DNA of 64,000 bases, taken from IMG/VR virus record IMGVR_UViG_3300045988_174937. One strand, 5' to 3'. A program made the position numbers and the translations under genes. Source of the DNA: a virus. This document shows positions 10,568 through 60,594 of this stretch, piece after piece (the first letter of the stretch is position 1; every line of letters starts with the position of its first letter). A model generated the notes under the pieces. That model made no database searches, was not told where the DNA came from, and saw nothing but the letters and a program-made list of their open reading frames with translations.

Positions 10568-10915
10568 ATGACTGTAAATGAATGGCGATTCAAGATATGC
10601 GTGAGAGCGCGTGATGAATGGCGAAAGAATCCTCAAAACTACAACGGCTTGTGCTCGTTGTTTGTGAATACGATAGTCCAAAATGGCCATGAAGAAACTG
10701 ACGACAAAGAGTTCAACGAGTTGATATTCGAGATTATTCGTCGCAAAGGATGTTGTAGGCCAACGGTATCTGAACTCATCCCAGAGTTTGTACGTCCAGC
10801 TGATGCCGATCAAGAAGCGGTCTTTTGGTGGATTACCTCCGATAAACAACGCCGTATGGAGTTTTTGGAGTATTTGGTGTCTTATTACGCCAACGCAGTT
10901 GATAAGGAAGAATAA
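10568..10915 (+). CDS. hypothetical protein
   Basis: 115-aa ORF, the first gene after the long intergenic region. Visibly A/T-richer than the structural genes. Confidence 0.6.
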   Translation: MTVNEWRFKICVRARDEWRKNPQNYNGLCSLFVNTIVQNGHEETDDKEFNELIFEIIRRKGCCRPTVSELIPEFVRPADADQEAVFWWITSDKQRRMEFLEYLVSYYANAVDKEE

Positions 10916-10916
10916 T

Positions 10917-11267
10917 ATGGTTTGGCGACGGGTTAAAGGAGCTGAAACGGCGTGGAGTATTGTACGTGAGGTGGTGTCCTCACGAAAGGTTGGCCAACGT
11001 ATTACGCAAGGAAAAGTGCGTGCTGAGTTGGAAAAGCGTTTGGAGAATTACAAGAAATATGGTTCTTTGGCCACTGTAAACGCTTATTTCAATTATTTGG
11101 CTGGAGCAGGGTACATTCGTCATCGATATCATAACGACCCGTGGGTTATTGTGGAGCCTCTTCCTCCAGACCTTTCATCGGCAAAGTTAGTAGAGATGTA
11201 TAAAAATCGTAAGATAAAACGCGGATATGGCTTGCAGGATAGATATCGCAAGAGAAAATTTCTTTGA
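10917..11267 (+). CDS. hypothetical protein
   Basis: ATG at 10917, 2 nt after the upstream stop, inside ORF 10788..11267. Confidence 0.55.
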   Translation: MVWRRVKGAETAWSIVREVVSSRKVGQRITQGKVRAELEKRLENYKKYGSLATVNAYFNYLAGAGYIRHRYHNDPWVIVEPLPPDLSSAKLVEMYKNRKIKRGYGLQDRYRKRKFL

Positions 11268-12735
11268 ATATTCGTTTCGAAATTCCGACAGTACGGGGAA
11301 ACGGATAGTCGCAGCGGCTCTTACATTCAGGAATCCAAGTCCGTTTGCCTATTCTGACAAGATACAGATGTTCGATAGGCGTATGTTCACATTTCGTGTG
11401 GGGATGTTGCCTACGCTGTTGAAGAAGTTGTCAAATAGGGGATTGGATTATCGGCTACAAGATTACGAATACAAAATACCACGAAAGATAAAAATCGACC
11501 CACGCCTCAGTGGTAAATACATTCACCAGCGGCGGGCTGTAGAAGCGTTTCTGCGGCGGCGTGTAGGTATTATCGTCGTTCCGACGCGCGGCGGTAAAAC
11601 CTACATTGCTGGCGAGTGTATTCGCATATTTTGCGAAGAGCAACCTGCAGACCAGGTGTTGTTCTTGGTGGATAGTAAAACTTTATTTCAACAGGCAATA
11701 GACGATTTTCATCACTATTTTGAACCTTATGGAGGTATAGAAATTGGCGAGATACGTGCTGGGTGTATTGATACCGAAAAGCGCGTAACCGTTGGCATGA
11801 TACAAACCATTCAAGCGACACTGTCTAAACGTTGTACAGATACGCGTAAAAAGAACGGCCTAAAGAATTATTTGAAGTCCATTCGATTTTTGGTCGTTGA
11901 TGAAATACACGATAACGCATCACCAACCAAGCTATCAATCTACAAAAAGTGCATACATCTTACACACCAGCTGAGCCTTTCGGCTACGCCGTATCGTGCA
12001 GAGGCGTTTGTAGAAAACTTGCGTTTGAGGGCTTGGAGTGGTGATGTTGTTTATCGTATAAAGGAAGAAACGCTCCGTGAACGCGGCGTATTAACAGAAT
12101 ACAAGGTGTTTTTGCTGGCCTTGGAACAGGACCCCCGTTCGGTATTAGCTTCGACATATGCAGCGTACCAAAAAGCGATGATATTTAACAACAAGATACG
12201 TGATAATATCGTTGTTTTGGTAGTTAAGATGTGTCAGAGGTGCGGGTTTAAGACCTTGTTGATGTTTCAATCTGTTGACCATGGACGTCACATTAGCGAA
12301 CTCACAGGATGTACGTTTATTCATGGCGACACGGTTAACGAAGAGCGAGAACATGTTAAAGAGGAATTCTTGGCGCGTACTGATGGTGGTGTATTATTGG
12401 CGTCGAATATTTTCAAGAAAGGCGTTACGCTTCCTGAAGTCGAAGTGTTGTTTAACGTTGACGGAGGGCTTGAAAACGCCAACACTATCCAGAAAAAAGG
12501 GCGTGTTCTTGGCGCTACGGTCGATAAGACCCATTCAGCCATTATCGACTTTATTGACTTGGACGATTCTTACTTTGCCGAGCACTCTGCTACACGGTTA
12601 AATACCTACGTTAAAGCCGTCGGCGAGGGTAAGATTGGAATACTCGATACGGCGGTTGATGATTGGTTAAAAACTCTTGAACGATGGCTGACGATTTGGT
12701 TATCTGTAAACAGGCACTCTACCGATACGCCGTGA
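11227..12735 (+). CDS. superfamily 2 DEAD/DEAH-type DNA helicase
   Basis: Motif I VVPTRGGKTYIAGE, motif II LVVDEIHDN, motif III LSATPYR, motif VI QKKGRVLG. Confidence 0.7.
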   Translation: MACRIDIARENFFEYSFRNSDSTGKRIVAAALTFRNPSPFAYSDKIQMFDRRMFTFRVGMLPTLLKKLSNRGLDYRLQDYEYKIPRKIKIDPRLSGKYIHQRRAVEAFLRRRVGIIVVPTRGGKTYIAGECIRIFCEEQPADQVLFLVDSKTLFQQAIDDFHHYFEPYGGIEIGEIRAGCIDTEKRVTVGMIQTIQATLSKRCTDTRKKNGLKNYLKSIRFLVVDEIHDNASPTKLSIYKKCIHLTHQLSLSATPYRAEAFVENLRLRAWSGDVVYRIKEETLRERGVLTEYKVFLLALEQDPRSVLASTYAAYQKAMIFNNKIRDNIVVLVVKMCQRCGFKTLLMFQSVDHGRHISELTGCTFIHGDTVNEEREHVKEEFLARTDGGVLLASNIFKKGVTLPEVEVLFNVDGGLENANTIQKKGRVLGATVDKTHSAIIDFIDLDDSYFAEHSATRLNTYVKAVGEGKIGILDTAVDDWLKTLERWLTIWLSVNRHSTDTP

Positions 12736-14694: not shown

Positions 14695-15643
14695 ATGGGG
14701 CATAGACGTTCGTGAGTTGCTTGGTACGAACGGGCGATTTAATTCGCGTCGCACGGAATATATCACCAAGTGCCCTTTTTGTGGGAAAGAATCCCATTTC
14801 TATGTTAATGTCAGCACCCTGCGCTTTTCGTGTAAGAAATGCTGGGAGGAGGGCGGCGTTTACAAGCTACTATCGCAGTTTGATAAGTTGTACCTGTTAG
14901 AGGGAGCCACTATCGAGGAACGCGAGGTAATACCCAAAATCCGCGATTTGGCTGCGTCTGCCACTGAAGACGTAAAACTGGGGCCACTGCCGCCACGGAA
15001 GATGCCTGTGGGCTACAAAGTGTGTTTGCACGACACTTATCTCGAACGCGACCGCGGTCTTACTCCAGCCGTTATGAAGCGATACGCCATTGGCCGTACT
15101 AAGTTGGTGCGGAGGTACGCCGATTATATCCTCATTCCGGTAACTACCGATGGCGTCGTCACGGCTTTCCAGGGCCGTTACGCTTCTAAGAAAGTACCGC
15201 CCGACGCCCTGCGCTGGCGTAACGATACCGGGGCTGACTTCGCCAAGATGCTGTATGGCTACGACGATATAAAGGTGCCCGGCGCGACGGTGATATTGGT
15301 TGAGGGCGTATTCGATAAAATAGCTGTGGACCGTCGGTTACGATTGGACGAGTGTGACGACGTCAAGTGCTGTGCTACGTTCGGCAAGAAAATAAGCGAC
15401 TACCAACGTGCCATGCTCCAGAAAAAGGGCGTCCGCTCGGTGGTGTTGCTTTACGATTTTGACGCCATAAAAGAGATTAAAAAGTACGCGTTCGAATTGG
15501 ACAAATATTTTTCTACAAATATAGTTTTCACGACCAAAAAGGACATTGACGAGTGTAATGAAGCTGAGACGTTGGAGGTTTTCAAACGTTTACAACGTCC
15601 TCGCGATTTTGCTTGGAATGTTATAGGAAAACTAAAAAGGTAA
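14684..15643 (+). CDS. DNA primase (zinc ribbon + Toprim)
   Basis: Zinc ribbon CPFCGKESHFYVNVSTLRFSCKKC; Toprim VILVEGVFDKIAV and LLYDFDA. Confidence 0.7.
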   Translation: MTNKWGIDVRELLGTNGRFNSRRTEYITKCPFCGKESHFYVNVSTLRFSCKKCWEEGGVYKLLSQFDKLYLLEGATIEEREVIPKIRDLAASATEDVKLGPLPPRKMPVGYKVCLHDTYLERDRGLTPAVMKRYAIGRTKLVRRYADYILIPVTTDGVVTAFQGRYASKKVPPDALRWRNDTGADFAKMLYGYDDIKVPGATVILVEGVFDKIAVDRRLRLDECDDVKCCATFGKKISDYQRAMLQKKGVRSVVLLYDFDAIKEIKKYAFELDKYFSTNIVFTTKKDIDECNEAETLEVFKRLQRPRDFAWNVIGKLKR

Positions 15644-15648
15644 CAATC

Positions 15649-16077
15649 ATGAACACCAAGAAGAACCTGTCAGCGGCGGAGTATTTTCACGTTGTGCAAC
15701 AGGAATATCTCATGGCAGAATTTCGACGTAAAATATACTTTTCCCCCAAAGACAAGCGGTATTATGAACGGTTGATGCAGTACAAGCGGGAGAAGATTGA
15801 AGATATCGGCATGCGCTATCGCTTATTGTCGATTTTCAATTCTGTAGATAAGGTAAACGCCATTCGCGCCGAACTGTTCGACCCACTGGGGCGGCCTATG
15901 TTCCATATGAGTGAACAGGATTGGAAGAATTACTATTCTGTAAATTCTGATTTCTCGTATCGAGGCGAGGTTTGGAAACTGGACGCTGTTAAGGGAGATG
16001 TTCTTACTTTATACAACGAACGGCAGGAAGTGTACGCTGACGACGTCTCCAAGGATGAAGTCATAAGAATTTTGTAA
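15649..16077 (+). CDS. hypothetical protein
   Basis: ATG at 15649 inside ORF 15613..16077. Confidence 0.6.
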   Translation: MNTKKNLSAAEYFHVVQQEYLMAEFRRKIYFSPKDKRYYERLMQYKREKIEDIGMRYRLLSIFNSVDKVNAIRAELFDPLGRPMFHMSEQDWKNYYSVNSDFSYRGEVWKLDAVKGDVLTLYNERQEVYADDVSKDEVIRIL

Positions 16078-16094
16078 AATTTTAGCTAAAATTC

Positions 16095-16125
16095 TTTGTA
16101 GATTGAAATATTGTTACTAAATTTG
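16095..16125 (+). promoter_or_regulatory. Bacteroidota-type promoter P1 (-33 TTTG / -7 TAAATTTG)
   Basis: TTTG at 16095-16098, a 19-nt spacer, TAAATTTG at 16118-16125. Shares TTTGTAGATTG with three other copies. Confidence 0.6.
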
Positions 16126-16171
16126 CGCTGGAGTTGGTTGTTAACAGCCAACAATCGTAAAACAAATTGGC

Positions 16172-16804
16172 ATGAAAGCGTCGGAAAAAGCCTACAAAGA
16201 ATTAGAGTATTTAGCTGTTAAATACGCCAACAAGCTATACTCCTATGAAGAGTTGTCACTGGAACGTGACGACCTCTTGCAAGAATTTCGTTTGAAAATT
16301 TTCACTTCTATAAAAGCCTACGGGCGTCGTTGGCTGGCATATCGCCGCGGTGAGGCCCCTAAGCCAGTTCCCCTTAAATACTATGTCGAATGCGCTTGTT
16401 CTAACAAGGGTAATGATATTATGCGTGCTATTCGGAAGGAGAACTACAAACTACGCATCGACCAAACAGCGTATGATTATGGCGTGGAAGATACTGTACA
16501 TGTAGATTCCGGAAAAGATAAATTCGTACTCAATGGCGTTGACGTTTTGGCTAATTTGACTGGTGTAAAGCGTGTTATATTTTCGATGCATGTACGCGGT
16601 CAAAGTAAGAAATTAATGGCGCGTATATTACGCACACCGTTTGCTGTGGCCGAGGGTTACGACCCTAATATGATGATTAACGATGCTAAAATGCTTGTCG
16701 ATAAAATAATCGAAGACCAGAAGCAGTATTTGTTGAACAACCATCGTGCAGCGTTATATTATACACCAACGCGTTACGATTACTATCGTGTACAAGAAGA
16801 TTGA
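16172..16804 (+). CDS. putative sigma-70/ECF-like transcription factor
   Basis: Region-2-like ERDDLLQEFRLKIFTSIKAYGRRW and region-4-like LTGVKRVIFSMHVRGQSKKLMARIL. Sits directly behind promoter P1. Confidence 0.4.
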   Translation: MKASEKAYKELEYLAVKYANKLYSYEELSLERDDLLQEFRLKIFTSIKAYGRRWLAYRRGEAPKPVPLKYYVECACSNKGNDIMRAIRKENYKLRIDQTAYDYGVEDTVHVDSGKDKFVLNGVDVLANLTGVKRVIFSMHVRGQSKKLMARILRTPFAVAEGYDPNMMINDAKMLVDKIIEDQKQYLLNNHRAALYYTPTRYDYYRVQED

Positions 16805-17992: not shown

Positions 17993-19210
17993 ATGAAGCA
18001 AGAATCAATTTCCAAGGCCGAAACGGGCATTAGCCGTTTTGAGTTTGACTATCGGCGGCGTGTGGTATTTACCGACCCGCGCGGTTCGTTCGCCGAGGTG
18101 TATCCGTATATCAACCGCACGATGATGACGACGCTCCCGCTTCAGGATTCTCGTGCTGGTAAGGTACGCGAACTGCTCGACGTCAAGACCATCATCAACA
18201 ACCCGTATCGCCGCTGTGTAGGCGGTTACGCCCGCAACATCAACGTCTTCTTCCTGCTGGCTGAAGCTATGTGGATAGTTACGGGCCGCAAGGACGTCGA
18301 GTTCCTGAAAATCTTCAACGGTAAGATGGTCGATTTTTCCGATAATGGCGTTACGTTCCACGCCCCTTACGGCTGGCGTTTGCGTCACTGGGGTATTTCG
18401 TCCGAGGGCGAGTCGATGGACCCGGGCCTGGACCAGGTAAAGGAAGCCATTCGCCTGCTGAGCGCTGACCCGGAAACGCGTCAGGTGGTGATGTCGATTT
18501 GGAATCCTAAGTTTGACCTCGGCGTGAAATCGAAAGACTTGCCGTGTAACGACATGGTGATGCTGAAAATCCGCGACGGGAAACTCGTTACCACGGTCCA
18601 GAATCGTTCGAACGACCTCCACTGGGGCTTACCCACGAACATCTTCCAGTTCTCGTTCCTGACGGAGGTAATGTCCCTCTGCTTGGGGGTAGAGTTAGGC
18701 GTTCAGACTCACAATTCGCAGTCGCTCCATATCTACGAATGGAATAATATCGCCGAGCAGATGAGCGAACTTTTCGCGTCCAATAATACGCGCCGCAGTT
18801 TGTACTGCGAGGGAGCGATGTCGTACATGATGGACTTTAAGTTCGAATCGGAGGTTCCGGTAAACCGCTTGTGTGAAATAACGGCCTTTATGGAAGAGAT
18901 GATAAATCGCTTGGCAATGCGGCACGCAAAAGGCGATATCTTGGAAGATGAGGCCGGGTTCGAGAACTACGTGTTTGAGAAATCGACCTATTTCTGGGTA
19001 GTTTATCAGCTGTTGAAGGTGTACGTCTTCTACAAGCGCAATATTGGCGCCTACGCGGATGACCGCGATACGTTGCTGAAGTCGTGCTATGCGCTGGTGG
19101 ACCGTATTGCAGGGGCCGTATCCGTTGAAGAAAAGTGGGACTACCTGATGCTGGCTCGCAATTTCTTCGCGGCAAGGTTATCTAACGCAGAAACCTGTAA
19201 ACTCCTGTAA
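17993..19210 (+). CDS. thymidylate synthase-family enzyme (ThyA / pyrimidine hydroxymethylase superfamily) with a long C-terminal extension
   Basis: DQVKEAIRLLSADPETRQVVMSIWNP...DLPCNDMVMLKIRDGKLVTTVQNRSNDLHWGLPTNIFQFSFL...SLHIY aligns with E. coli ThyA [25 protein letters not shown]...[41 protein letters not shown]...DTHLY. 405 aa against about 264 for ThyA. Confidence 0.7.
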   Translation: MKQESISKAETGISRFEFDYRRRVVFTDPRGSFAEVYPYINRTMMTTLPLQDSRAGKVRELLDVKTIINNPYRRCVGGYARNINVFFLLAEAMWIVTGRKDVEFLKIFNGKMVDFSDNGVTFHAPYGWRLRHWGISSEGESMDPGLDQVKEAIRLLSADPETRQVVMSIWNPKFDLGVKSKDLPCNDMVMLKIRDGKLVTTVQNRSNDLHWGLPTNIFQFSFLTEVMSLCLGVELGVQTHNSQSLHIYEWNNIAEQMSELFASNNTRRSLYCEGAMSYMMDFKFESEVPVNRLCEITAFMEEMINRLAMRHAKGDILEDEAGFENYVFEKSTYFWVVYQLLKVYVFYKRNIGAYADDRDTLLKSCYALVDRIAGAVSVEEKWDYLMLARNFFAARLSNAETCKLL

Positions 19211-19211
19211 T

Positions 19212-20906
19212 ATGACTGACTCGCTACGTCGGTGGGCGGAAGATAACTATCTGGCTATCGAAGAAAAGCGCGACGACGAATTGAACATAATCGCTATTGA
19301 GGGCGTGGGGGACTTCTTGTACCTCCACCCCGACGATAGCGGAAAGATAATCGACGAACGGTTCTCGTTCGCGGTAACGGCTGACGAATTCGACGCGCTG
19401 TACGATGGCGTGGTGAAATACATCCTCTTCGAGTTTGGCGGCAAGTTCTACTACTCGAATATCAAAAAGGACCACCTGCGGCTGGATAAAACCGTGGTTT
19501 TCCGTCCCGAATTCCGCGACTTCAAGTATCTCGGCACCAGTACGGCTGAAGAATTGGTTCCGTTCGTTCACCTGGGGGTTCATAGCGAATACGAGTTCTT
19601 GAACGGTTCGTCAAACTGCGAAGAATGGGCTGCTAAGGCCAAATTCAACCGTATGACGGCTCTTGGTATTTGTGACCGTAATACGCTGGCTGGCACGCTC
19701 GCCTTTCAGACCGCTTGCTTGGGCAAGGGGTTGAAACCTATCATCGGCGAAACTGTTACCGTGGCTTGTAACTACGACCCGGCGGCTGACGTTCAGGAAA
19801 CCTTTTCGCTGAAACTCTACGCCATGAATACCCAGGGATGGCGAAACCTGCTGCTGGTTAATAAGGCTATCAACGTCGATTATCAAGGATTCATACCCGC
19901 GGAAGAACTCTACAAGTTAGGCCGCGGCCTGGTATGTGTAATACCGCCTGATAGCGAATTAAACTATTTCAAGGGGGACGTCGAGCGTTGCAAGCGGTTA
20001 TTGACGGCCTATCACGCCGCATTCGACCGTGTGTACTACCAGATTGATACGGTGGAGTACACATCCGAAACCCTATTCCGCGACCACTTGGAAAGTATTG
20101 ATACCTACGTATGCCGCTGTCGTAAGATTAAACTCTACCGACAGACGCCGCCGCTCGTTATAAACGACTCGTATTACCTCGACGCCGAAGAGGCTCCGCT
20201 GAAGTCGCTTCTGAACAAGGTAGCAGGCGTGGTCAATGCCGAAAGTGCGACCCAGTATTTCAAAAACTCAAAAGAGACGATTCTGGCGTATGAAGAGTGG
20301 ATGGATGTAGCCGCGCCCCTTTACGAAAAGATAATCGTTGGTATGACCAATTCCAGCACGTTGGCGGAGAGTATTGACTTTAAGATACCCACCGGAATAC
20401 GTCACCTGCCGAAATACGAGTTTGTTAAAACTACGGTTGAAGACGCCTTTTTCGAGAAACTGGAAGCGGGCGTACAGGAGCGGCTGGTAGGTAAGGTTGA
20501 TAACCTCGATCAGTATCTGGCGGAGTTGGAAAAGGAATGTGCCATCATCGTACCGAACGGGCTGTGTGACTACTTTATGATACTTTGGGACATCATGAAC
20601 TGGTGTCGCGAGCAGGGTATCATGACTGGGTCAGGTCGTGGCTCGGTTTGCGGTTCGTTGATTGCGTATTGCCTGTACATCACGGACGTGGACCCGCTGA
20701 AATACAATCTCATGTTTGAGCGATTTTTGAACTCTAATCGTGTTGAACCAGAAACAATATTTACGGTCGAGTTGGAAAATGGAGATAAATATAAAATCAA
20801 AAAGGGTGAAGAGATAAAAACAGTTGACGGAAAGTTTGTTAAGATTGAATCTGAAGCGGATTTGGTTGATTTGGATGTTGATGTAACTACTCTGAGACTT
20901 TCCTAA
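19212..20906 (+). CDS. dnaE: DNA polymerase III alpha, N-terminal part (PHP domain and first half of palm)
   Basis: PHP motif FVHLGVHSEYEFLNG and palm motif GSGRGSVCGSLIAYCLYITDVDPLKYNLMFERFLNSNRV. Homology then ends and a stop follows 54 codons later. Confidence 0.85.
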   Translation: MTDSLRRWAEDNYLAIEEKRDDELNIIAIEGVGDFLYLHPDDSGKIIDERFSFAVTADEFDALYDGVVKYILFEFGGKFYYSNIKKDHLRLDKTVVFRPEFRDFKYLGTSTAEELVPFVHLGVHSEYEFLNGSSNCEEWAAKAKFNRMTALGICDRNTLAGTLAFQTACLGKGLKPIIGETVTVACNYDPAADVQETFSLKLYAMNTQGWRNLLLVNKAINVDYQGFIPAEELYKLGRGLVCVIPPDSELNYFKGDVERCKRLLTAYHAAFDRVYYQIDTVEYTSETLFRDHLESIDTYVCRCRKIKLYRQTPPLVINDSYYLDAEEAPLKSLLNKVAGVVNAESATQYFKNSKETILAYEEWMDVAAPLYEKIIVGMTNSSTLAESIDFKIPTGIRHLPKYEFVKTTVEDAFFEKLEAGVQERLVGKVDNLDQYLAELEKECAIIVPNGLCDYFMILWDIMNWCREQGIMTGSGRGSVCGSLIAYCLYITDVDPLKYNLMFERFLNSNRVEPETIFTVELENGDKYKIKKGEEIKTVDGKFVKIESEADLVDLDVDVTTLRLS

Positions 20907-21012
20907 ATGAGACAATGTTATTATGATGGCGATACTCCGCCGTTTGGGTGGAATAGAGGAAGAGTGAAACATGAAAATAAAAAAGGTTGAGAAAATATCA
21001 GTTGCCCGTCAG
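20742..21012 (+). other. A/T-rich insertion splitting dnaE (candidate ORF-less intron, or a genuine gene split)
   Basis: It lies between FERFLNSNR and DSMPDIDCDF, which are contiguous in canonical Pol III alpha. The two exon-like parts are in different frames. These boundaries follow the 5'-exon-U / intron-terminal-G convention but are not proven. Confidence 0.35.
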
Positions 21013-23814
21013 GACAGCATGCCTGATATCGACTGCGACTTCCCGGTGGCGTTCCGTGATACGGTGAAAGAGTACATGGCCCGTCGTTACGGCGTGGACC
21101 ACGTTTGTTCCGTGGGTACGTACACGCGCATGAAACTGAAGACCTGTTTGAAGGACTTTGGTAAGGTTATGGGCGTTCCGTTTGCGGTGATGAATAAACT
21201 CACCAAGGACATTGACGACCAAATAGAATACACGTGGGGCGACCTGTTCAACTACGCCGCAACGTCGCGGGAATTATTCCGTTTCGTCCAGGACCACCCG
21301 GAGTTGGTACACATGACGAAATACGCCCTTACACAGTGTAAGACGGGTTCGGTTCATCCGTCGGCCGTTATCATCGTACCCAAGGAAGACGAAGATGGTC
21401 ACCCCATCGACCTTTACGGGTGGATGCCTATGAAACGCATGGGTGGCGTGCTGGTCTCCGAGTGGGAGGGTAAGTATATCGACAAGTCAGGGTTCTTGAA
21501 AGAGGATATTTTGGGCCTCAACCAACTGGATAAGTTTTCGTCTATTCTGAAACTTATCGCCAAGAACCGCAAGGAGCAAATCGACGTCAACACCATTCCG
21601 TTCGGCGACGAGGAGGTATTCCGGTATTTCCAGCGCGGGTGGTGTGAGGATGTGTTCCAATTTGGTGCTATGGGGTTGATGAATTACTGCCGCGAGGCCA
21701 AGCCGCATAGCCTGGACGACCTTATCGCTATGACGGCGTTGTTCCGGCCCGGTCCTATGGATGTAAAGGCGCACGAAACGTTCGTTGAAATTAAGAACGG
21801 CGCCAGGAAGCCTAAGTTCGACCCCGGTATGGAGGAAATCACGCGCGACACCTATTCGCTTTATACCTACCAGGAGCAGATAATGAAAGCGATGGTTGTC
21901 GGAGGATTAACCCCCGTTGAGTCAGATGAATGTCGTACTTACATCAAGAAGAAAAACCACGAAGCGCTGGCCCAGTTTAAGGGAAAGTTCGTAAATGGAT
22001 ATTCGGCGTTGATAGAATCACGAGGCGTTGAATCTAAACGCGCCGCGGCCCAGGCTTCTGAGGTTTGGGACAAGATGCTGGCATTTGCTTCGTATGGCTT
22101 CAATAAGTGCTTGGCAGGTTCGGAACGTATTCGTCGCGTAGGTATTACGCGCGGTTCGTATGCTCCCACTATCGAAGAGATGTACGAAATAAAGAATCGC
22201 ACGTCTGATTTATGGCTATCTCACGAATCGTTAAGCGATAAGTATATTCGTTCAGGGTACGGAATGTGCTGGTCGTTAAACGACGAAGGCAGGTTGGTTC
22301 GTAATAAAATCGTTGACATCCGTTTTGAAGGTGTGCGTCCAGTTTACGAAATCACTGTACGTTCCGGCGAAAAGATACGCTGTACGTCTAATCACCGCTT
22401 CCCGACACTGGCGGGTGAAATGTCTATAGATAGCGGTTTGGCAGTTGGTGCTCGATTGTATATCTGGGCTGGATACGAAGAAACGAATAAGGATTATTCG
22501 TTCCAACGCGGTAGGTCTCAAAACTATCCTACGAAGGGTCAGTGCGGATTCCAGCGTCAAGAATATCATCCCACCGTTGACTTTGAAAATTTCAAACGCC
22601 AACACGCCGGATGCCCGTGTGATAAGTGCGGCAAAGTGGGAAAACGCATGGAGGCTCATCATATGGATGGGAATCGGGCGAATAATGACGTTAGCAACCT
22701 GATGTGGCTCTGTAATTCGTGTCATAAGAAAATCCACTTTGAAACGCTACCGCGTCACCGAATGGGTGAAAAGGGATTGTTAACACGATTGGAAGAAATC
22801 GTCAATATTCAGTGCGTAGGTGAAGAAAAAGTCTATGACGTGGAGGTGAGCGGCAACGTGTCACACACGTTTTTGACTGACGGTGGTGTGGTAACGTGTA
22901 ATTCTCACGCCGTGGCCTATACCATGATGTCGTACTGGTCGCAGTGGTTTAAGGTCAACTACCCACTGGAGTTCTGGACGACGTCGCTTCAGTATACCTC
23001 GAAGGAATCCGATATCCCGTATCGCTTGGTGGAGATGAAGAAAACCGGGGCTGAAATTGAGGTCCGTCCGCCGGATATCAATTTCTCAGGTGAAACCTTT
23101 ACGTGCGACCCCAAGACGAACCGTATCTTCTTTTCGCTGGGTAAGGTCAAGGGAGTAGGCGAGCGGGCGTTAACGCTATTGAAAGCCATGAAAGACGAGC
23201 ACGGCGAAGTGTTCTCGTTTGAGGACTTCATAACCTCCGCCCCGAAAGGCATAAACCGTACCGTGGTGCTGCGCCTTATTATGGCTGGAGCGTTCGACCT
23301 GGTAGAAGATATCCGGAACCCGCGTCAGCGTCTGGACATCGTCAAGCAGTATCTCGAACGTCGCGGCGAACCGCTTTCCGACGAATTCACTTCGCCTGAT
23401 GCTCACACTAACGCCTGGTGGGTCTTCAAACAGCGTGAATTAACCGGGTACGGCGAAGTAGACTACGAACGTATGATGAACGAATACGGACTCGGAAAAC
23501 GAATGGTCCGGCTGTACGTTACCGCCGCCGAGTTTGAGCGCAAACACGAAGGTGACGAGGTTTGCATCGTTGGCCGTGTGAATAACGTATTCGAACGCCA
23601 AACCAAGGGTGGCGATTCTTACGGAGTACTGCAAGTGGAGGTCAACGACCTCATCATCCAGATTACGTTGTGGCCCGACTTTTGGCTTCATCAGCCGGAA
23701 AACGAAGCTACGCTGTTGAACCGTATCGTGGCCGTTTCAGGGCGTGTGAATTATTTCGCTGGAAAGAAGACCGTACAGTCTTCACAATCTACAAGGTTAG
23801 AGATATTACAATAG
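20971..23814 (+). CDS. dnaE: DNA polymerase III alpha, C-terminal part (catalytic aspartates, fingers, OB region), containing an intein
   Basis: After a 15-aa leader it resumes with SMPDIDCDF. Further motifs: LFRPGPMD, and YGFNK / SHAVAYTMMSYWSQWFKVNYPLEFW split by the intein. Confidence 0.85.
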   Translation: MKIKKVEKISVARQDSMPDIDCDFPVAFRDTVKEYMARRYGVDHVCSVGTYTRMKLKTCLKDFGKVMGVPFAVMNKLTKDIDDQIEYTWGDLFNYAATSRELFRFVQDHPELVHMTKYALTQCKTGSVHPSAVIIVPKEDEDGHPIDLYGWMPMKRMGGVLVSEWEGKYIDKSGFLKEDILGLNQLDKFSSILKLIAKNRKEQIDVNTIPFGDEEVFRYFQRGWCEDVFQFGAMGLMNYCREAKPHSLDDLIAMTALFRPGPMDVKAHETFVEIKNGARKPKFDPGMEEITRDTYSLYTYQEQIMKAMVVGGLTPVESDECRTYIKKKNHEALAQFKGKFVNGYSALIESRGVESKRAAAQASEVWDKMLAFASYGFNKCLAGSERIRRVGITRGSYAPTIEEMYEIKNRTSDLWLSHESLSDKYIRSGYGMCWSLNDEGRLVRNKIVDIRFEGVRPVYEITVRSGEKIRCTSNHRFPTLAGEMSIDSGLAVGARLYIWAGYEETNKDYSFQRGRSQNYPTKGQCGFQRQEYHPTVDFENFKRQHAGCPCDKCGKVGKRMEAHHMDGNRANNDVSNLMWLCNSCHKKIHFETLPRHRMGEKGLLTRLEEIVNIQCVGEEKVYDVEVSGNVSHTFLTDGGVVTCNSHAVAYTMMSYWSQWFKVNYPLEFWTTSLQYTSKESDIPYRLVEMKKTGAEIEVRPPDINFSGETFTCDPKTNRIFFSLGKVKGVGERALTLLKAMKDEHGEVFSFEDFITSAPKGINRTVVLRLIMAGAFDLVEDIRNPRQRLDIVKQYLERRGEPLSDEFTSPDAHTNAWWVFKQRELTGYGEVDYERMMNEYGLGKRMVRLYVTAAEFERKHEGDEVCIVGRVNNVFERQTKGGDSYGVLQVEVNDLIIQITLWPDFWLHQPENEATLLNRIVAVSGRVNYFAGKKTVQSSQSTRLEILQ
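22108..22902 (+). mobile_element. intein with HNH homing-endonuclease domain inside dnaE
   Basis: In-frame 265 codons. Cys1 (CLAGSERI), block B IRCTSNHRF, HNH HHMDGNRANNDVSNLMWLCNSCHKKIH, block F/G VYDVEV..HTFL..GGVVTCN, then +1 Ser. The exteins rejoin to the canonical YGFNK-SHA. Confidence 0.8.
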
Positions 23815-23830
23815 TAGAACAAAATCGGTT

Positions 23831-24478
23831 ATGCAAAAGGATGATTTAATCAAACTCTTCAGTCGTGACCACCTGGCGCGGTTGGATAACATCAAGCAGT
23901 GGTTGGAGTACGACCGCCACCAGCAGGAAAGCGTTTCACAACATTCATACAAGGTATCAGTCTTCACGATGTGCCTGCTGGACTATCTCTGGCCCGGAGG
24001 GGACGATAATAATACGGTGGCCGCGTTTAAGTATCAGACGCTGAAGATGGCGCTGATGCACGACTTCGACGAGGCTGTTCTGCGTCGTGATATCACCCAC
24101 GAACTGAAATACAACGCCTACAACGGGTCGGAACTGCGTAACGTTTTGGACGAGTTTGTCGCTCACCAGGTAGCGGACGAATTTGGTGACGATTCAGTAG
24201 TCTCCAAAACGCTTTCTAAGGATGCGCCGTATTACGACGTTGCTCACGCGATTGTAAAGGTTGCTGATTGGATGGCGTTGCTGTATTTCCTGAAGCGCGA
24301 ACTGGCTATGGGGAACCGCTCGTGGCCCTTGAATTTGCTGCCGTACTGCAAGGAAAGCTACCGTAAGGCGGTTTCAACGTTACAAAGTACGTGTGTATCG
24401 GCGGATATTTGTGAGCAAGAGCGCCTGATGTACGTATGGGTAGGAGCCATTAATGACTTACAAAACGATATTATTTAA
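23831..24478 (+). CDS. HD-domain 5'-deoxynucleotidase (YfbR-like)
   Basis: ESVSQHSYKVSVFT, MALMHDFDEAVLRRDITHELKY and VKVADWMALLYFLKRELAMGN align with E. coli YfbR [35 protein letters not shown] and [21 protein letters not shown]. Confidence 0.7.
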   Translation: MQKDDLIKLFSRDHLARLDNIKQWLEYDRHQQESVSQHSYKVSVFTMCLLDYLWPGGDDNNTVAAFKYQTLKMALMHDFDEAVLRRDITHELKYNAYNGSELRNVLDEFVAHQVADEFGDDSVVSKTLSKDAPYYDVAHAIVKVADWMALLYFLKRELAMGNRSWPLNLLPYCKESYRKAVSTLQSTCVSADICEQERLMYVWVGAINDLQNDII

Positions 24479-30908: not shown

Positions 30909-31760
30909 ATGTACGGTATAATTTACAAAACTACGAACCTCGTCAACGGCAAGATTTACATCGGCCAACACGTTTGCAAATCTGACGAGTTTGACGGGTA
31001 TTTGGGGAGCGGAAGGAATTTAATCTTCGCCGTTAGGCATTACGGTCCTGAGAACTTCAAGCGCGAAACACTCTGCGTATGCGATACCCAGCTACAACTC
31101 GACGCTTGGGAGATGCTTTACATCAAGAAATTCGATTCGACCAACAAGAAGGTTGGCTACAACATCCTCCCTGGTTCATCGAATATGTTTGGTCAAGTAA
31201 ACCCGGCTAAAATTCCTGAGGTTAAGTGTAAAATGTCAATCGCCGCTAAACGGAGGTTATCTTCTCCAGCAGCGCGAGAAGCAATAAGGATTCGGATGAC
31301 AGGAATTAAGCAATCAGAAGAGTCAAAAGCCAAGAAGTCCCAATCTCTTATCGGGAGAATTATCACTGCAGAACACCGCGAAAAGATATCGAAAGCGTTA
31401 AGAGGAAAGAAAAAGACTCAAGAGCACATAAACAAAGTTGCCGAGGCGTTGCGCGGTAAACATCACACCGAAGAATGGAAAAGAAGACATTCGGAAATTA
31501 TGTCAGGGCGTGTACGAGGCGCAATGTCGGATGATACTAAACGCAAAATTTCTGAAGCTAACAAGAAATATTATAGTAAACATAAAAATGTGGTGTCGGA
31601 ACGGATGAAGAAATACTATTCTACTCATCCTCATCCGCTAACCGGAACACAATTTGTATGGATTAATAATGGATTGAAAAATAAACGTTTACCAAAGGGA
31701 GTTGTAATTCCCGATGGGTGGTCCAAGGGTATGATTCGTAACAACGTTATTATCTTATAG
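30909..31760 (+). CDS. free-standing GIY-YIG homing endonuclease with NUMOD3-like repeats
   Basis: MYGIIYKTTNLVNGKIYIGQH...YLGSG...E. The C-terminus has repeats EHREKISKALRGKKKTQEHINKVAEALRGKHHTEEWKRRHSEIMSGR. The gene is A/T-rich. Confidence 0.8.
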   Translation: MYGIIYKTTNLVNGKIYIGQHVCKSDEFDGYLGSGRNLIFAVRHYGPENFKRETLCVCDTQLQLDAWEMLYIKKFDSTNKKVGYNILPGSSNMFGQVNPAKIPEVKCKMSIAAKRRLSSPAAREAIRIRMTGIKQSEESKAKKSQSLIGRIITAEHREKISKALRGKKKTQEHINKVAEALRGKHHTEEWKRRHSEIMSGRVRGAMSDDTKRKISEANKKYYSKHKNVVSERMKKYYSTHPHPLTGTQFVWINNGLKNKRLPKGVVIPDGWSKGMIRNNVIIL

Positions 31761-32591: not shown

Positions 32592-32605
32592 CCACGTTGC
32601 GCCGT

Positions 32606-33244
32606 ATGCGAAAGTCTGTCGAACACCAGTTATTCAGCCAAACTTTTAAGTATCGTATTGGCTTTGTTAATCGTTGCATTGTCATAATTCGTTATTGTAA
32701 CGATGAACGACGCGCAGCGGCTTATCGTAATTTGTTGTTCCGGATGATGGGAGCTATTGTAACCAAGAATGTAACAAACTATCTTAGCTTATTGCATGGT
32801 TCCAATGCCCCTGATATTCCAACGCGTGACGAGGTTATTGCTGATTGTTATGCAATGTTTAACAAATGTTTAGAGAAATTTGTTATACTAAAAGGGGCCA
32901 ATTTCTACTTTTATTTCAATAAATCGATGTCCCGTAACTTCTACACTCTTTACAAGAAGAGTCTGAAGGACCGTCATGGTGACATTTCTGAAGCGTTGAA
33001 CTCCACACACCCAGACCTCCGTACGAGTACTTTGGCTGACGACACCGATATAACCTTTGCGACGTATGGTTTTAACGAAGTGGAGGTCCGAATTTCACGC
33101 TCGCGGTTACATGGCCAGCGAAAATCAGAGTTCTTAGCCGATAACCCGGATATTACACCAGCGATGTACGGCCGAGCGTTGGTGCATATTAAGCAACTTT
33201 TGGCCGATATTAGAAAACAATACGGATATGGAAAGGAAGATTGA
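32606..33244 (+). CDS. second putative sigma-like factor
   Basis: ATG at 32606. Region-2-like TRDEVIADCYAMFNKCLEKFV..ANFYFYFNKSMSRNFYTLYKK and region-4-like GFNEVEVRISRSRLHGQRKSEFLADNPDITPAMYGRALVHIKQLL. A/T-rich. Confidence 0.3.
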   Translation: MRKSVEHQLFSQTFKYRIGFVNRCIVIIRYCNDERRAAAYRNLLFRMMGAIVTKNVTNYLSLLHGSNAPDIPTRDEVIADCYAMFNKCLEKFVILKGANFYFYFNKSMSRNFYTLYKKSLKDRHGDISEALNSTHPDLRTSTLADDTDITFATYGFNEVEVRISRSRLHGQRKSEFLADNPDITPAMYGRALVHIKQLLADIRKQYGYGKED

Positions 33245-50018: not shown

Positions 50019-50306
50019 ATGAAAGTGCAAGATTTTTACAGTGCGTTGGCCGCCAAGGCTGACACCACCAAGGCCCAGGCGATTGCTTTCGTCCGTGCTC
50101 TGGAAGAGATTCTCACCGAGGAGGTTCGCGACAAGGGCGAAACCGTCGCCATCGGTAAGGTAGGAAAGTTCGTCCAAAAGGACCAGCCGTCACGTATGGC
50201 GCGTAATCCGCAGACGGGCGTTACGGCCCCCACCGAGCCCTACAAGACCATCCAGTTCCGCCCGGCGTACAGTTTCCGCGCCTACGGCAAAAAGGCTAAG
50301 AAATAG
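50019..50306 (+). CDS. HU/IHF-family DNA-binding protein
   Basis: 95 aa. GKVGKFVQKDQPSRMARNPQTGVTAPTEPYKTIQFRPAYSFR matches the HU arm motif R.ARNP.TGE.I.I.A...V.F.P. Confidence 0.75.
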   Translation: MKVQDFYSALAAKADTTKAQAIAFVRALEEILTEEVRDKGETVAIGKVGKFVQKDQPSRMARNPQTGVTAPTEPYKTIQFRPAYSFRAYGKKAKK

Positions 50307-50667: not shown

Positions 50668-50738
50668 TGGCCTGTGGTGTAATGGTAACACACCAGATTT
50701 TGGATCTGGCGTTGGAGGTTCGAATCCTTCCGGGCCGA
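50668..50738 (+). tRNA. tRNA-Gln(TTG): tRNA-Gln (anticodon TTG)
   Basis: Acceptor TGGCCTG / CGGGCCG plus discriminator A. Anticodon arm CCAGA-TTTTGGA-TCTGG, giving anticodon TTG at 50700-50702. T arm GGAGG-TTCGAAT-CCTTC. No encoded CCA. Confidence 0.85.
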
Positions 50739-50958
50739 CTAAACCCCCAATTAAAACCGCGTGTGGCAGACGTGGCCCGAAAGTCCATGGGTGAGGGGGT
50801 TTTTAAGAAATTTCGTTCGTTAACGTTGTGGCAGTTCGCCCGTGCCGGCAAAGGGAACACCAATAGGAACGGCAACCGACGAGCGCGGGGCGTGAAATAT
50901 CGCCCCGACCTTAAAGTCTTAACAGACTTCCATCAATCAAAGGTTTAATTCACCCCCG

Positions 50959-54693: not shown

Positions 54694-55218
54694 ATGGTTG
54701 TTAAATTTAAGAAAGTGCACCCCGAAGCCGTACTGCCGGCGTATGCTCACCCTGACGGTGAGGATAACGGACTGGACCTCGTGGCTGTGGCCGTAAAGGA
54801 AACCGAAGATTACATCGAATACGATACCGGCATCGCCGCTGAAATCCCCAAGGGGTACTGCGGCCTGCTGGTCCCGAATTCGCGTTGTTCGAAAATGGAC
54901 CTGGTGATGTGTAACGCGCCGGGCGTTATCGACCCAGGCTATCGCGGTACGATGCGCGCTCGTTACAAGAAGACGTGGCACTTACCGACGTTAGTCCACA
55001 GGTTCTTCAAGAGCGTCTGCGGATTGCTTTCCAACGTCTTCGGCGAGGTCGCCGGAATGAAGCCTCAAAACGTGAATATGAATACCAAGGAATTCAAGGT
55101 GGGTGACGTTGTGGCCCAGCTGGTCATCGTCCCCGCGCCGTATATCGAAGTGGAGGAAGCCGACACGCTGACGCCCTCGCTGCGTGACGCCGGAGGATTC
55201 GGTTCAACGATTAAATAG
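54694..55218 (+). CDS. dut: dUTPase (trimeric type) with an insertion between motifs III and IV
   Basis: Motifs NGLDLVA, VPNSRCS, GVIDPGYRGT, VGDVVAQLVI, RDAGGFGST. About 25-30 extra residues (KKTWHLPTLVHRFFKSVCGLLSNVFGEVAGMKPQNV) follow motif III. Confidence 0.8.
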   Translation: MVVKFKKVHPEAVLPAYAHPDGEDNGLDLVAVAVKETEDYIEYDTGIAAEIPKGYCGLLVPNSRCSKMDLVMCNAPGVIDPGYRGTMRARYKKTWHLPTLVHRFFKSVCGLLSNVFGEVAGMKPQNVNMNTKEFKVGDVVAQLVIVPAPYIEVEEADTLTPSLRDAGGFGSTIK

Positions 55219-58962: not shown

Positions 58963-59277
58963 ATGAACGCATGGAGATATTTCAAAATAGGTGACATCGT
59001 GACGGACCCCGAGGTGTGGGGCCGGACGACTTTTGTAATACGCTCGTTTCACGGCAACGACTACTGCCCATTAATCGCTGCAGAGTCCCTGAAACCAATC
59101 CGCGGTAAACGCATAAGGGTAAACCTCGGCGTACCTGAAACGCGACTTGTAAACGCCCCAAAACGTCCGTTGATGAAGATTGCGGATGATACGTTACGGA
59201 GGTTGGTCGGAAAAAGCACGGAAGCACGGCGTGAATTGTTAATTAGAACTTATCGTAAGCAAAATGGCGACATTTGA
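58963..59277 (+). CDS. hypothetical protein
   Basis: 104-aa ORF. Confidence 0.5.
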   Translation: MNAWRYFKIGDIVTDPEVWGRTTFVIRSFHGNDYCPLIAAESLKPIRGKRIRVNLGVPETRLVNAPKRPLMKIADDTLRRLVGKSTEARRELLIRTYRKQNGDI

Positions 59278-60274
59278 CCATTACCCCTGGGCTGATAAAC
59301 TACCTGCTGCCACACTTGACGTCAGCGAGGAGCACTATCACGATTTCTTCCGGACTATGTTTGAGCGTCAGATGATATGGAAGCGGCGGTTCCTGGACCA
59401 GAAGCCGCGTCCGTGGACTGATGACCCCATATTACGCGACTACAAATTCACCAACGTATATCGCGAACTGGACCGTAATTCACAGTGGCAGATACGCAAC
59501 ATCCTCCTGGACGACGAACTGACGTTGACGAATATGGTATGGAAGATGATGGTGTTCCGGTATTTCAACAATCCCCCGACGTTTGAATACGCACGTGAAA
59601 AGTACGGCTGGGGTGCAGGTATTCCGGATTACAACCAGTACGACGAGAAGACTTTTGCTGAAATGGTAGCGTCGTATCGGTTGTCGGGGCATAACCCCTT
59701 CACTACGGCTTATCTTATCAACTCGATGGCTGCGCCCGGTAAGACACGCGATGAATGTTACACAGGAACGGTCGTTCCTACGTTACATCGCCGTTTGTAT
59801 GAGCTGATGCGCGTTGTATTAACGGCAAAAACCCCTGAGGACATTATTCAGTTCCTAAGAACACTTCCAGCGTCAGCGGCGTTTATCGCTCATGAGTTCT
59901 ATCAGGATTTCACCTATATACCGCGCTACACTTATCGTCGTTTTATGCGCTTTACCCAGGATGACTACACTAACGTGGGTCCAGGTGCATCAACAGGATT
60001 ACGTTTGATATTTCCATCACTAAAATGTCAAGTAGATGGTATATATCGCCTGCGCGACGAAGCCGCAAAAGCGTTGTCTGTTTATGGAGATTTCCCTTAT
60101 CTGCACTGGCACAAACTGGAGAACGGGTACTACACTACACCGAATGGCGAATTAACGCTTCACCAAGTAGAGATGTGGTTGTGTGAGTATCAAAAGTATT
60201 GGAAAGTCAAAATCGGCCAAGGAAAGCAGCGGAGCCTTTTCCAGCCGCATACAAAAAGTGATGCATTTCAATGA
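59264..60274 (+). CDS. candidate DNA thymidine-hypermodification enzyme (aGPT-Pplase-like)
   Basis: FERQMIWKRRFLDQKPRPWTDDPILRDYKFTNVYRELDRNSQW matches the signature I recall for the alpha-glutamyl/putrescinyl thymine pyrophosphorylase family. This is recalled from memory and was not searched. Confidence 0.4.
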   Translation: MATFDHYPWADKLPAATLDVSEEHYHDFFRTMFERQMIWKRRFLDQKPRPWTDDPILRDYKFTNVYRELDRNSQWQIRNILLDDELTLTNMVWKMMVFRYFNNPPTFEYAREKYGWGAGIPDYNQYDEKTFAEMVASYRLSGHNPFTTAYLINSMAAPGKTRDECYTGTVVPTLHRRLYELMRVVLTAKTPEDIIQFLRTLPASAAFIAHEFYQDFTYIPRYTYRRFMRFTQDDYTNVGPGASTGLRLIFPSLKCQVDGIYRLRDEAAKALSVYGDFPYLHWHKLENGYYTTPNGELTLHQVEMWLCEYQKYWKVKIGQGKQRSLFQPHTKSDAFQ

Positions 60275-60594
60275 TAACGTTCCATCGACCAATAGAGGTG
60301 AAAGAATTCATGGGTATTGATTTTCAGTCTTTGGCTGAAGACCTTACTACGAGTGCCGCTAAACTTTGTGTTATAGGCACTTTTATTACTCCAATGACCG
60401 TTGATGAGGTTAAGATATTCAAACGGTTGTTGGAGTATATTCGTTTTGATGGCGAGTGGCAGGGAGCCTATGATGACCAGACCGATTATTACTACTGGAA
60501 TGGCCGAACGATTGTTATTTGGGGCGATATCGCAAACCAGGCGTTGATTTTGCAGCGCAATCAACGAAACGACGTTTTGGCATTCTTCCCCTAA
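60271..60594 (+). CDS. hypothetical protein
   Basis: 107-aa ORF with an ATGA overlap. A/T-rich. Confidence 0.5.
   Translation: MITFHRPIEVKEFMGIDFQSLAEDLTTSAAKLCVIGTFITPMTVDEVKIFKRLLEYIRFDGEWQGAYDDQTDYYYWNGRTIVIWGDIANQALILQRNQRNDVLAFFP

Follow-up and report, generated by a model that had tools for sequence, protein, structure and literature searches.

What does a gene from the thymidine hypermodification machinery do in a phage in which the enzymes that normally accompany it cannot be found? The question is raised by a 64,000-nucleotide stretch of viral DNA, IMG/VR record IMGVR_UViG_3300045988_174937 (hereafter the window), in which the open reading frame (ORF) at 59264..60274 had been assigned from its sequence to the alpha-glutamyl/putrescinyl thymine pyrophosphorylase (aGPT-Pplase) family. 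Thymidine hypermodification shields a phage genome against restriction enzymes, it serves as a source of novel enzymes that modify DNA, and the characterised pathways all use a 5-hydroxymethyldeoxyuridine (5-hmdU) DNA kinase together with an aGPT-Pplase transferase of clade 2. The window gene falls instead in Pfam family PF18723, which corresponds to clade 1. On balance we favour, by a modest degree, the view that its product is a cysteine-dependent base-flipping enzyme, or a subunit of one, that acts on 5-hmdU in DNA independently of a kinase, in a pathway linked to glycosyltransferases and a radical S-adenosylmethionine (radical-SAM) enzyme. The gene and its two diagnostic blocks are as follows.

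59264..60274, plus strand: standalone PF18723 gene of 336 aa (ATG-started ORF with a Pfam PF18723 match)
59363..59488, plus strand: N-terminal signature ERQMIWKRRF....PRPWTDDPILRDYKFTNVYRELDRNSQW, which holds R35, R42, W51, N64, R67 and D70
60161..60199, plus strand: motif HQVEMWLCEYQKY, with E303 (60170..60172) and C307 (60182..60184) as candidate acid and nucleophile

The family assignment is secure. The protein matches PF18723 over residues 23–319 with an E-value of 3.5e-50 (171.4 bits against a cut-off of 25; profile positions 2–278 of 281), PHROG 2396 at 1.2e-48 and our own hidden Markov model (HMM) of the clade 1 family at E 1.5e-113, while no other Pfam family, PF18724 included, was matched at E<=0.1. 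The naming of the family requires some care. PF18723 is currently called ‘HMUDK_hel’ (5-hmdU DNA kinase, helical domain) in Pfam, and the corresponding GenBank and UniProt records speak of aGPT-Pplase clade 1. A ViI-type Klebsiella phage protein labelled ‘aGPT-Pplase1 domain’ matches the same model at 4e-81, the homologue in Bacillus phage Nachito carries the label ‘aGPT-pyrophosphorylase clade 1’, and structural neighbours of the window protein are labelled ‘Pplase1 ... clade 1’. The proposed membership of the aGPT-Pplase superfamily is therefore upheld, but the original prediction also placed the gene among the proven decorators of 5-hmdU, and here it must be corrected. Those enzymes, the glycine, serine and putrescine:DNA transferases M6 gp51, PaMx11 gp46, ViI gp247 and PhiW-14 gp109 (PMC8989533), belong to clade 2, which is PF18724 (‘ADDT’) in current Pfam, and the window protein corresponds to PaMx11 gp50 and not to gp46. 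The known family PF18723 gains in this gene a new and distant member, and nearly all of the 150 family representatives nearest to it are likewise standalone proteins and not kinase fusions. It is also a genuine, constrained gene and not a chance ORF. There are 709 close homologues in a collection of 5.8 billion proteins, clustering of the representative library at 50% identity puts the family in 3,555 clusters, and dN/dS against orthologues is 0.06–0.13 (from four usable pairs only).

The phage comes from human gut metagenomes and has a genome of about 97 kb, of which the part beyond position 64000 was read from two overlapping sister-strain IMG/VR loci (86% identity). All six-frame ORFs of at least 40 aa from this whole genome were searched, with filters off, using custom HMMs for clade 1, for clade 2 and for the 5-hmdU DNA kinase, the last of these built on 120 sequences that cover the M6, PaMx11 and SP10 types, because the Pfam kinase model scores the proven PaMx11 kinase at only 18 bits, hardly a detection. 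Positive controls of the custom models scored between 1e-58 and 1e-135, those for the kinase between 1e-58 and 1e-107. In the whole genome the best match to a kinase of the PF18748 type was the P-loop of a helicase (E 0.011), the best match to a clade 2 transferase had an E-value of 1.1, and no kinase domain was found within the PF18723 protein itself. The same holds for the wider phage family: 193 related loci (3.39 Mb) gave no kinase and no clade 2 match, against 105 matches to PF18723. Pfam and HMM scans of the genome likewise found none of the tailoring families, namely pyridoxal phosphate-dependent decarboxylases, SplB-like radical-SAM enzymes, flavin-dependent (FAD) lyases and acetyltransferases. 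The earlier statement that the window holds no P-loop 5-hmdU DNA kinase is thus borne out, by Pfam scans of all ORFs as well as by the custom HMM. The accompanying suggestion that the pathway might be completed outside the window needs correction: no kinase completes it in the ~97-kb genome or the 193 loci, and the candidate partners that lie there are a radical-SAM/SPASM enzyme and glycosyltransferase cassettes. Bacillus phage YungSlug was considered as a cultured precedent for a kinase-less arrangement and was rejected, as a kinase is found two genes upstream (L003:4086-4790, E 3e-61). This YungSlug 5-hmdU DNA kinase is unannotated, and a Tad2-like (Thoeris anti-defence) protein is encoded between it and the PF18723 gene (L003:5399-5929).

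If kinase and clade 2 transferase are missing, is there any reason to expect 5-hmdU in the DNA of this phage? Three genes in the window bear on the supply of the modified nucleotide.

17993..19210, plus strand: ThyA-fold enzyme of 405 aa, a predicted dUMP hydroxymethylase (PF00303 1.9e-22, partial; PHROG 5131 4.8e-70)
23831..24478, plus strand: YfbR-like HD 5′-deoxynucleotidase (PF12917 9.3e-10; HD_3 9e-7)
54694..55218, plus strand: dUTPase/dCTP-deaminase-like protein (PF00692 3.9e-8; DCD 2.3e-4; PHROG 135 dUTPase 4.4e-28)

The core of the ThyA-fold protein is 45.7% identical to SPO1 gp29, 48% to the YungSlug enzyme and 40% each to the SP-10 ‘dUMP hydroxymethylase’ and PaMx11 gp51, and its closest cultured relatives include the dUMP hydroxymethylases of SP8, SP82G and CP-51. 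Its catalytic Cys185 and its Asn216 are invariant with the SPO1, SP-10, YungSlug and PaMx11 enzymes. By comparison with thymidylate synthase and T4 dCMP hydroxymethylase, asparagine instead of aspartate at this position points to specificity for uracil. A gene of this type accompanies PF18723 in at least 21 of 28 near-complete contigs, and a homologue of the hydroxymethylase is present in 230 Bacillus-phage records. The HD 5′-deoxynucleotidase would remove the competing deoxynucleoside monophosphate (dNMP). Its homologues directly follow the ThyA-like gene in PaMx11 (gp52), in Yuavirus PAC9 (ORF82) and in two metagenomic loci (L292 and L300), and lie within 6 kb of it in 67 of 101 loci. The dUTPase-like protein may, by analogy, supply dUMP and exclude dUTP or dTTP; in phage SH-Ab 15599 a dTTPase/dUTPase feeds the modification pathway (PMC13458397). 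Genes of these three types are standard companions in 5-hmdU phages (PMC13458397), and because an SPO1-gp29-like hydroxymethylase, an HD nucleotidase and a dUTPase are all encoded here, it is likely that the phage makes 5-hmdU DNA, with the modified base replacing dT during replication. The idea of thymidine hypermodification thus gains support on the supply side, by homology to SPO1 gp29. The window also encodes an HU-family DNA-binding protein (50019..50306, PF00216 2.6e-14). The HU-like protein TF1 of SPO1 prefers 5-hmdU DNA; a like preference of the window protein would be speculation.

Whether the PF18723 protein is likely to act on such DNA as an enzyme can be approached through its fold and its conserved residues. 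The AlphaFold model, computed with 29 homologues, has a pLDDT of 90.2 and a pTM of 0.87 and is all-alpha except for one small hairpin. Among predicted viral folds the best match is the fused 5-hmdU DNA kinase of SP10 (TMq 0.75), the matches to the PF18723 members of SP10, phiRSL1 and PhiW-14 span Foldseek E-values of 3e-14 to 1e-7 (TMq 0.57–0.75), and predicted amino-acid:DNA transferase models come next (E about 1e-2, probability 1.00, TM about 0.5). In a search of 350,542 PDB chains the top match was 8Z2M, the crystal structure of PaMx11 gp46 (E 0.19, probability 0.85, TM 0.38/0.43), with helix-hairpin-helix DNA glycosylases ranking behind it at low probability; a PDB sequence search gave nothing meaningful.

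Conservation was assessed over 137 representatives that are 24–47% identical to the window protein. The residues of the signature block are conserved at 86–99%, the set of R35, N64, R67, D70 and R99 in 97–99% of representatives, and the full set of R35, N64, R67, D70, R99, F207, G241 and E303-x3-C307-E308-x2-K311, each 92–100% conserved, is present in the window protein. The signature block appears to be specific to clade 1, as the hhalign alignment with clade 2 covers only residues C-terminal to it. In the C-terminal motif C307 occurs in all 137 relatives, K311 in 99%, E308 in 98% and E303 in 92% (otherwise glutamine), and E303 and C307 pair with E243 and C247 of PaMx11 gp46 in both MAFFT and hhalign, within an overall alignment that is statistically insecure. 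Cys247 of gp46 is the proposed covalent nucleophile and E243 sits within the active site (PMC11472151); in our own alignment C247 is the sole invariant cysteine of clade 2. Given a universally conserved cysteine, PF18723 is probably an enzyme that uses cysteine chemistry at C6 of the pyrimidine, and not a mere helical appendage.

Evidence on other partners comes from phages unrelated to that of the window. An alignment-based PF18723 scan of viral contigs retained only the window's own phage family, and the diversity came through a scan centred on ThyA-like genes. This second sample covers 6 kb on either side of such genes outside the window's phage family, so that a more distant kinase is possible in any of the loci. 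The following classes were found.

PF18723 only: 8 loci
PF18723 and kinase: 5 loci
Kinase and clade 2 transferase, PF18723 absent: 5 loci
PF18723, kinase and clade 2 transferase: 1 locus

No kinase is thus found within 6 kb in 8 of the 14 diverse PF18723 loci. Since the locus classes differ in this way, PF18723 is separable from the kinase/transferase pair, and its constant partner is the hydroxymethylase. The kinase-less loci have a second feature in common. A small HMM for TET/5mYOX-associated glycosyltransferases (TAGT) matched six of seven kinase-less PF18723 loci (three of the six lying outside the model-building set), none of six kinase-linked loci and none of five kinase-plus-transferase loci, all within the same 6 kb. 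Three arrangements illustrate the linkage.

L300 (64.6-kb contig): PF18723, TAGT, glycosyltransferase-like, radical-SAM/SPASM, ThyA-like and HD genes, contiguous
L305: PF18723, glycosyltransferase-like and TAGT genes, then, at a distance, a ThyA-like gene
L292: TAGT, PF18723, ThyA-like and HD genes

The order TAGT-PF18723-ThyA-like is found in L292, L293 and L297, on contigs of 41–47 kb, with the HD gene next in L292. The combination of PF18723, ThyA-like, HD and TAGT genes without a kinase is seen in the sister strains of the window phage (L014 type) and in L286, L292, L293, L297, L300 and L305. Two further distant representatives, P0300 and P0250, are known from 1.3-kb contigs only and have no gene context. 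In the phages with plain 5-hmdU DNA, SPO1, SP8 and CP-51, no PF18723 protein was found, with a Bacillus-phage query included in the search. The association also extends to the sea: in Pelagiphages the thymidylate synthase (TS) and PPlase1 genes are co-located, at times with a 5′-deoxynucleotidase and the same glucosyltransferase family (PMC9599517).

In the window's own phage family the candidate partners lie beyond the end of the window, in the region downstream of the target gene.

L014:10933-13366: radical-SAM/SPASM gene and TAGT cassette of a sister strain, ~9.5–13 kb downstream of the target gene
L013:10933-14041: radical-SAM/SPASM gene and a cassette of 226-aa and 495-aa proteins, ~9.5–13 kb downstream of the target gene
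L014:13402-17541: 583-aa P-loop protein (PHROG 1250) and 794-aa protein, outside the window and adjoining the glycosyltransferase cassette

The sister-strain radical-SAM/SPASM enzyme matches PF04055 at 1.4e-15 and PF13186 at 3.5e-12, and the adjoining TAGT protein matches PF20691 at 2.5e-13 and PHROG 842, ‘beta-glucosyl-HMC-alpha-glucosyltransferase’, at 3.7e-17. The contigs nearest to the window, whose target protein is 99% identical, carry the 226-aa and 495-aa genes at the TAGT site. The two cassettes have only 45 residues in common, at the junction, and are swapped among strains that are otherwise 86–99% identical. Such strain-to-strain exchange would be expected of DNA-modification genes selected by host defences. 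The second cassette recurs in distant relatives (at 41% and 49% identity). Neither of its proteins has a Pfam, PHROG or PDB assignment, and the 495-aa protein is weakly GT-B-like, with a Glyco_transf_4 match at E 0.001 for a 49% homologue and an hhalign match at the level of motifs. Of the two larger proteins beside the cassette, the 583-aa P-loop protein is conserved, has no Pfam or PDB assignment and its PHROG 1250 has no assigned function; the 794-aa protein has no Pfam, PHROG or PDB assignment, and a protein-kinase-like ‘D-x4-N ... DNG’ motif can be picked out in it by eye only, unconfirmed by tools.

These elements can be assembled into a scheme. The dUTPase-like enzyme and the SPO1-gp29-like hydroxymethylase would make 5-hmdUMP while the HD nucleotidase removes the competing nucleotide, and 5-hmdU would then take the place of thymidine in newly made phage DNA. 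Once the DNA has been replicated, 5-hmdU or an O-derivative would be flipped into a pocket of the PF18723 protein, where Cys307 would attack C6 of the pyrimidine with Glu303 as the acid and so render the C5-methylene reactive, as proposed for the homologous PaMx11 gp46. The glycosyltransferases (TAGT, or the GT-B-like protein with the 226-aa protein) and the radical-SAM/SPASM enzyme would act as partners instead of a kinase. As the genome has neither kinase nor clade 2 transferase while glycosyltransferases and a radical-SAM/SPASM enzyme are present, the end product is likely to be a sugar-bearing or other non-amino-acid derivative of 5-hmdU. Family membership, conserved residues, gene content and co-occurrence are observed; the production of 5-hmdU, the cysteine catalysis and the action of glycosyltransferases on DNA are inferred.

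Several observations weigh against this scheme. The third of the genome beyond the window comes from a sister strain and not from the window's own, so its gene content is read there indirectly, and in the strains nearest to the window the cassette is not TAGT and its 495-aa protein is only weakly GT-B-like. Either the 583-aa or the 794-aa protein could be an unrecognised kinase. The target gene sits between the FEN and portal genes, apart from the glycosyltransferase and radical-SAM genes and from the hydroxymethylase, and because the genes are dispersed in this way the linkage of PF18723 to glycosyltransferases is drawn from other phages. The match to 8Z2M is a weak one (E 0.19, TM 0.38/0.43), and a direct hhalign comparison of clades 1 and 2 gives a probability of 0.2–1.1%, non-significant with narrow profiles (0.2%) and with P = 0.047 for wide ones; with profile–profile support this marginal, the equivalence of the Cys/Glu pairs rests on the short motif and the fold. 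Finally, M6 gp55 and ViI gp160, which synteny with a Yuavirus relative and a ViI-like Klebsiella phage would place in PF18723, are dispensable for hypermodification in vitro and have no reported activity (PMC8989533): lysates without M6 gp55 still make the hypermodified intermediate, and ViI gp160 is one of a redundant pair (PMC8989533, PMC5889632).

The dispensability of the clade 1 proteins would also be explained by a different activity, in which PF18723 restores thymine. Here Cys307 would add to C6 of 5-hmdU, or of an activated ester of it, the leaving group would depart and a hydride donor would reduce the exocyclic methylene, so that modified bases and plain thymine would be mixed in the phage DNA in a sequence-specific way. 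In phages of this kind the 5-hmdU in DNA ends up, through conversion in situ, as thymidine or as a hypermodified base, and the route to thymidine ‘is still unknown’ (PNAS 2018, PMC5889632). All examined phages with the mixed phenotype carry PF18723 (PhiW-14, SP-10, ViI-like phages, M6/Yuavirus, PaMx11 and SH-Ab 15599), the DNA of phage 15599 retains about 77% plain dT despite a supply route that provides only 5-hmdU (PMC13458397), and the phages with plain 5-hmdU lack the gene. The invariant Cys and Glu are of a catalytic type, and the chemistry is feasible on such a fold, as gp51 with borohydride turns 5-PmdU into thymidine (PMC8989533). Fusion of the domain to a kinase would be explained as well. 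On the other side, thymidine formation was not reported for lysates containing M6 gp55 or ViI gp160 acting on thymine-free SP8 DNA, the 336-aa all-helical protein shows no domain for cofactor binding or hydride donation, and the window phage has no kinase that could create a good leaving group. Nor does thymine restoration predict that PF18723 should be so tightly paired with TAGT where no kinase is present. We consider this activity unlikely to be the function of the window protein, while keeping it in view.

A further alternative is implied by the current Pfam name, ‘kinase helical domain’: PF18723 might be a non-catalytic base-flipping or targeting subunit that presents 5-hmdU in given sequence contexts to a kinase or a glycosyltransferase. 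In SP-10 kinase and domain form a single fusion protein of 637 aa, the domain directly follows the kinase in PaMx11, in Yuavirus and in five metagenomic loci, and the alternative partner, TAGT, aims at the same oxygen atom as the kinase. Hypermodification in such phages is specific for sequence context (PMC13458397), a targeting subunit could well be unnecessary in vitro, under enzyme excess, and the five loci with kinase and transferase but without PF18723 show the behaviour of an optional accessory. A passive module, however, needs no invariant lone cysteine (137 of 137) beside an invariant Glu and Lys, in the motif that holds the nucleophile of a related transferase, and the predominance of standalone proteins among the 150 nearest representatives does not fit a domain devoted to the kinase. 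For these reasons we hold a purely targeting role to be improbable. That the protein is a small terminase subunit is very improbable indeed: it has a weak match to PHROG 800 ‘terminase small subunit’ (1.5e-7, aa 103–314), homologues from SP-10, a Klebsiella phage and a Pseudomonas phage are so labelled, and its gene is placed immediately upstream of the portal, 4.6 kb downstream of the putative large terminase, but the match to PF18723 exceeds that to PHROG 800 by more than 40 orders of magnitude, the fold is transferase/glycosylase-like, the gene lies in other phages in nucleotide-metabolism clusters beside the ThyA-like gene and DNA polymerase and not in packaging modules, and the RefSeq label sits on the proven 5-hmdU DNA kinases PaMx11 gp49 (L002:4417-4986) and SP-10 gp186 (L207:3053-4966) (PMC8989533). 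The label was traced to these mis-annotated kinases; PHROG 800 bears it too, and newly annotated phages pass it on to PF18723 proteins.

Returning to a cysteine-dependent enzyme or subunit that works with glycosyltransferases, how does the window phage compare with known systems? The closest are the classical clade 1 proteins, ViI gp160, M6 gp55, PaMx11 gp50, PhiW-14 C9DG43 and the C-terminal half of SP-10 gp186, which have the same PF18723 domain, fold and E-x3-C-E-x2-K motif and are likewise accompanied by a dUMP hydroxymethylase and an HD 5′-deoxynucleotidase. They are only 24–30% identical to the window protein, their genes lie in a nucleotide-metabolism cluster and not between FEN and portal, and in their phages the kinase is fused or adjacent and a clade 2 transferase is present, neither of which the window's phage family has. 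Clades 1 and 2 have been treated as paralogues with a helix-hairpin-helix glycosylase-like fold (PMC5889632). The clade 2 enzyme gp46/PUGT (8Z2M) resembles the window protein as its best PDB fold match, and its nucleophilic cysteine with a glutamate four residues upstream may have a counterpart in C307 and E303; the block from R35 to D70 has no counterpart in the clade 2 alignment, and clade 2 transferases require 5-PmdU made by the kinase (PMC8989533).

Pelagiphages of the HTVC023P type carry TS and aG/PT-PPlase1 as ‘partner AMGs’ (auxiliary metabolic genes), in an account that does not mention a kinase (PMC9599517). These are marine podoviruses of small size in which the genes cluster near PolA, whereas the window phage is about 97 kb, with a contractile-tail gene set, a DnaE-type polymerase and dispersed genes, and its family adds the radical-SAM/SPASM gene and the alternative sugar-transferase cassettes. 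The TAGT systems and base J of trypanosomes provide a parallel in the chemistry, with the same family (PF20691) and the same logic of glycosylating a hydroxymethyl-pyrimidine in DNA. In those systems a dioxygenase acts after replication, whereas the ThyA-fold enzyme of the window phage would add the hydroxymethyl group ahead of replication; Pfam scans of the window and of the sister-strain part of the genome found no TET/JBP-type dioxygenase. Phage thymine dioxygenases that make 5hmU are ‘frequently associated with glycosyltransferases’ (PMC13229309). The radical-SAM enzyme of the window phage is of the SPASM type and not of the photolyase-like type annotated in an M6-like phage. PF18723 with glycosyltransferases and a SPASM radical-SAM enzyme, in the absence of kinase and transferase, would thus represent a new variant of hypermodification, glimpsed before in Pelagiphage genomics. 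A broader proposal is that PF18723 constitutes a second class of cysteine-dependent DNA-pyrimidine enzymes acting on 5-hmdU and no passive kinase domain, which in an abundant family of human-gut phages would work without a kinase, alongside glycosyltransferases and a SPASM radical-SAM enzyme, towards a sugar-based hypermodification (base-J-like or more elaborate), and/or would convert 5-hmdU to thymine; in this general form the proposal is tentative and rather doubtful.

The position of the gene raises a further question, as the original prediction regarded the A/T-rich region 58963..60594 as an acquired cassette. Two small ORFs flank the gene.

58963..59277, plus strand: orf104, overlapping the start of the target gene by 14 nt; no Pfam or PHROG match
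60271..60594: orf107, GC content 0.43; present in 13 of 47 loci

The region is indeed A/T-richer than its neighbours, with a GC content of 0.472 against 0.508 for FEN and 0.540 for the portal gene, and 0.47–0.53 at third codon positions against 0.66–0.69. It is unexceptional within the window: its GC content lies at the 11.6th percentile among windows of the same size in the 64-kb stretch, and the target gene has a z-score of -0.93 among 51 window genes, six of which are lower in GC. The order TerL...DUF2786-FEN-orf226-orf104-PF18723-portal is kept in 45–47 of the 47 fully flanked loci, down to 52% identity, and orf104, with a homologue in 45 of them, travels with the PF18723 gene. Conserved gene order and composition statistics together contradict the idea of an acquired cassette; orf107 is plausibly the sole mobile piece in an otherwise fixed arrangement. 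The genome is compositionally patchy in general, with a GC content of 0.42–0.44 at 10788..12735, 15613..16804 and 32597..33244 against a window mean of 0.513. For the suggested Bacteroidota host there is a weak hint, in that one 97-kb relative was binned in a Bacteroidales metagenome-assembled genome, but another contig was binned with Sulfuricurvum.

Other features of this genome were noted in passing.

19212..20906 and 20971..23814: DnaE-type (Pol III alpha) polymerase, as two ORFs
Within the polymerase ORF 20971..23814: intein with an HNH endonuclease (Intein_splicing 1.1e-7; HNH_3 5.6e-5)
30909..31760: GC content 0.42, NUMOD3 motif and, by eye, a GIY-YIG-like N-terminus; probably a free-standing homing endonuclease after an SbcC-like gene
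50668..50739: tRNA-Gln (anticodon TTG), in a gap of ~700 bp between the HU-like gene and an RNase T-like exonuclease gene, where a long minus-strand ORF that had been listed is probably spurious
L005:16720-18474, outside the window and downstream of the portal, among the head genes: variable protein of 521–691 aa, with an ADP-ribosyltransferase exotoxin domain in one strain only (precomputed Pfam)

In conclusion, a widespread family of human-gut phages that has neither the 5-hmdU DNA kinase nor the clade 2 transferase keeps PF18723 among its core genes, under strong conservation, and across unrelated phages PF18723 pairs with either the kinase or a TAGT glycosyltransferase. These associations predict a sugar-based 5-hmdU pathway in gut and marine phages, and they make PF18723 a concrete candidate for the conversion of 5-hmdU to thymine in phage DNA. 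The modified DNA, if present, could bias both sequencing and restriction-based analyses of the gut virome.

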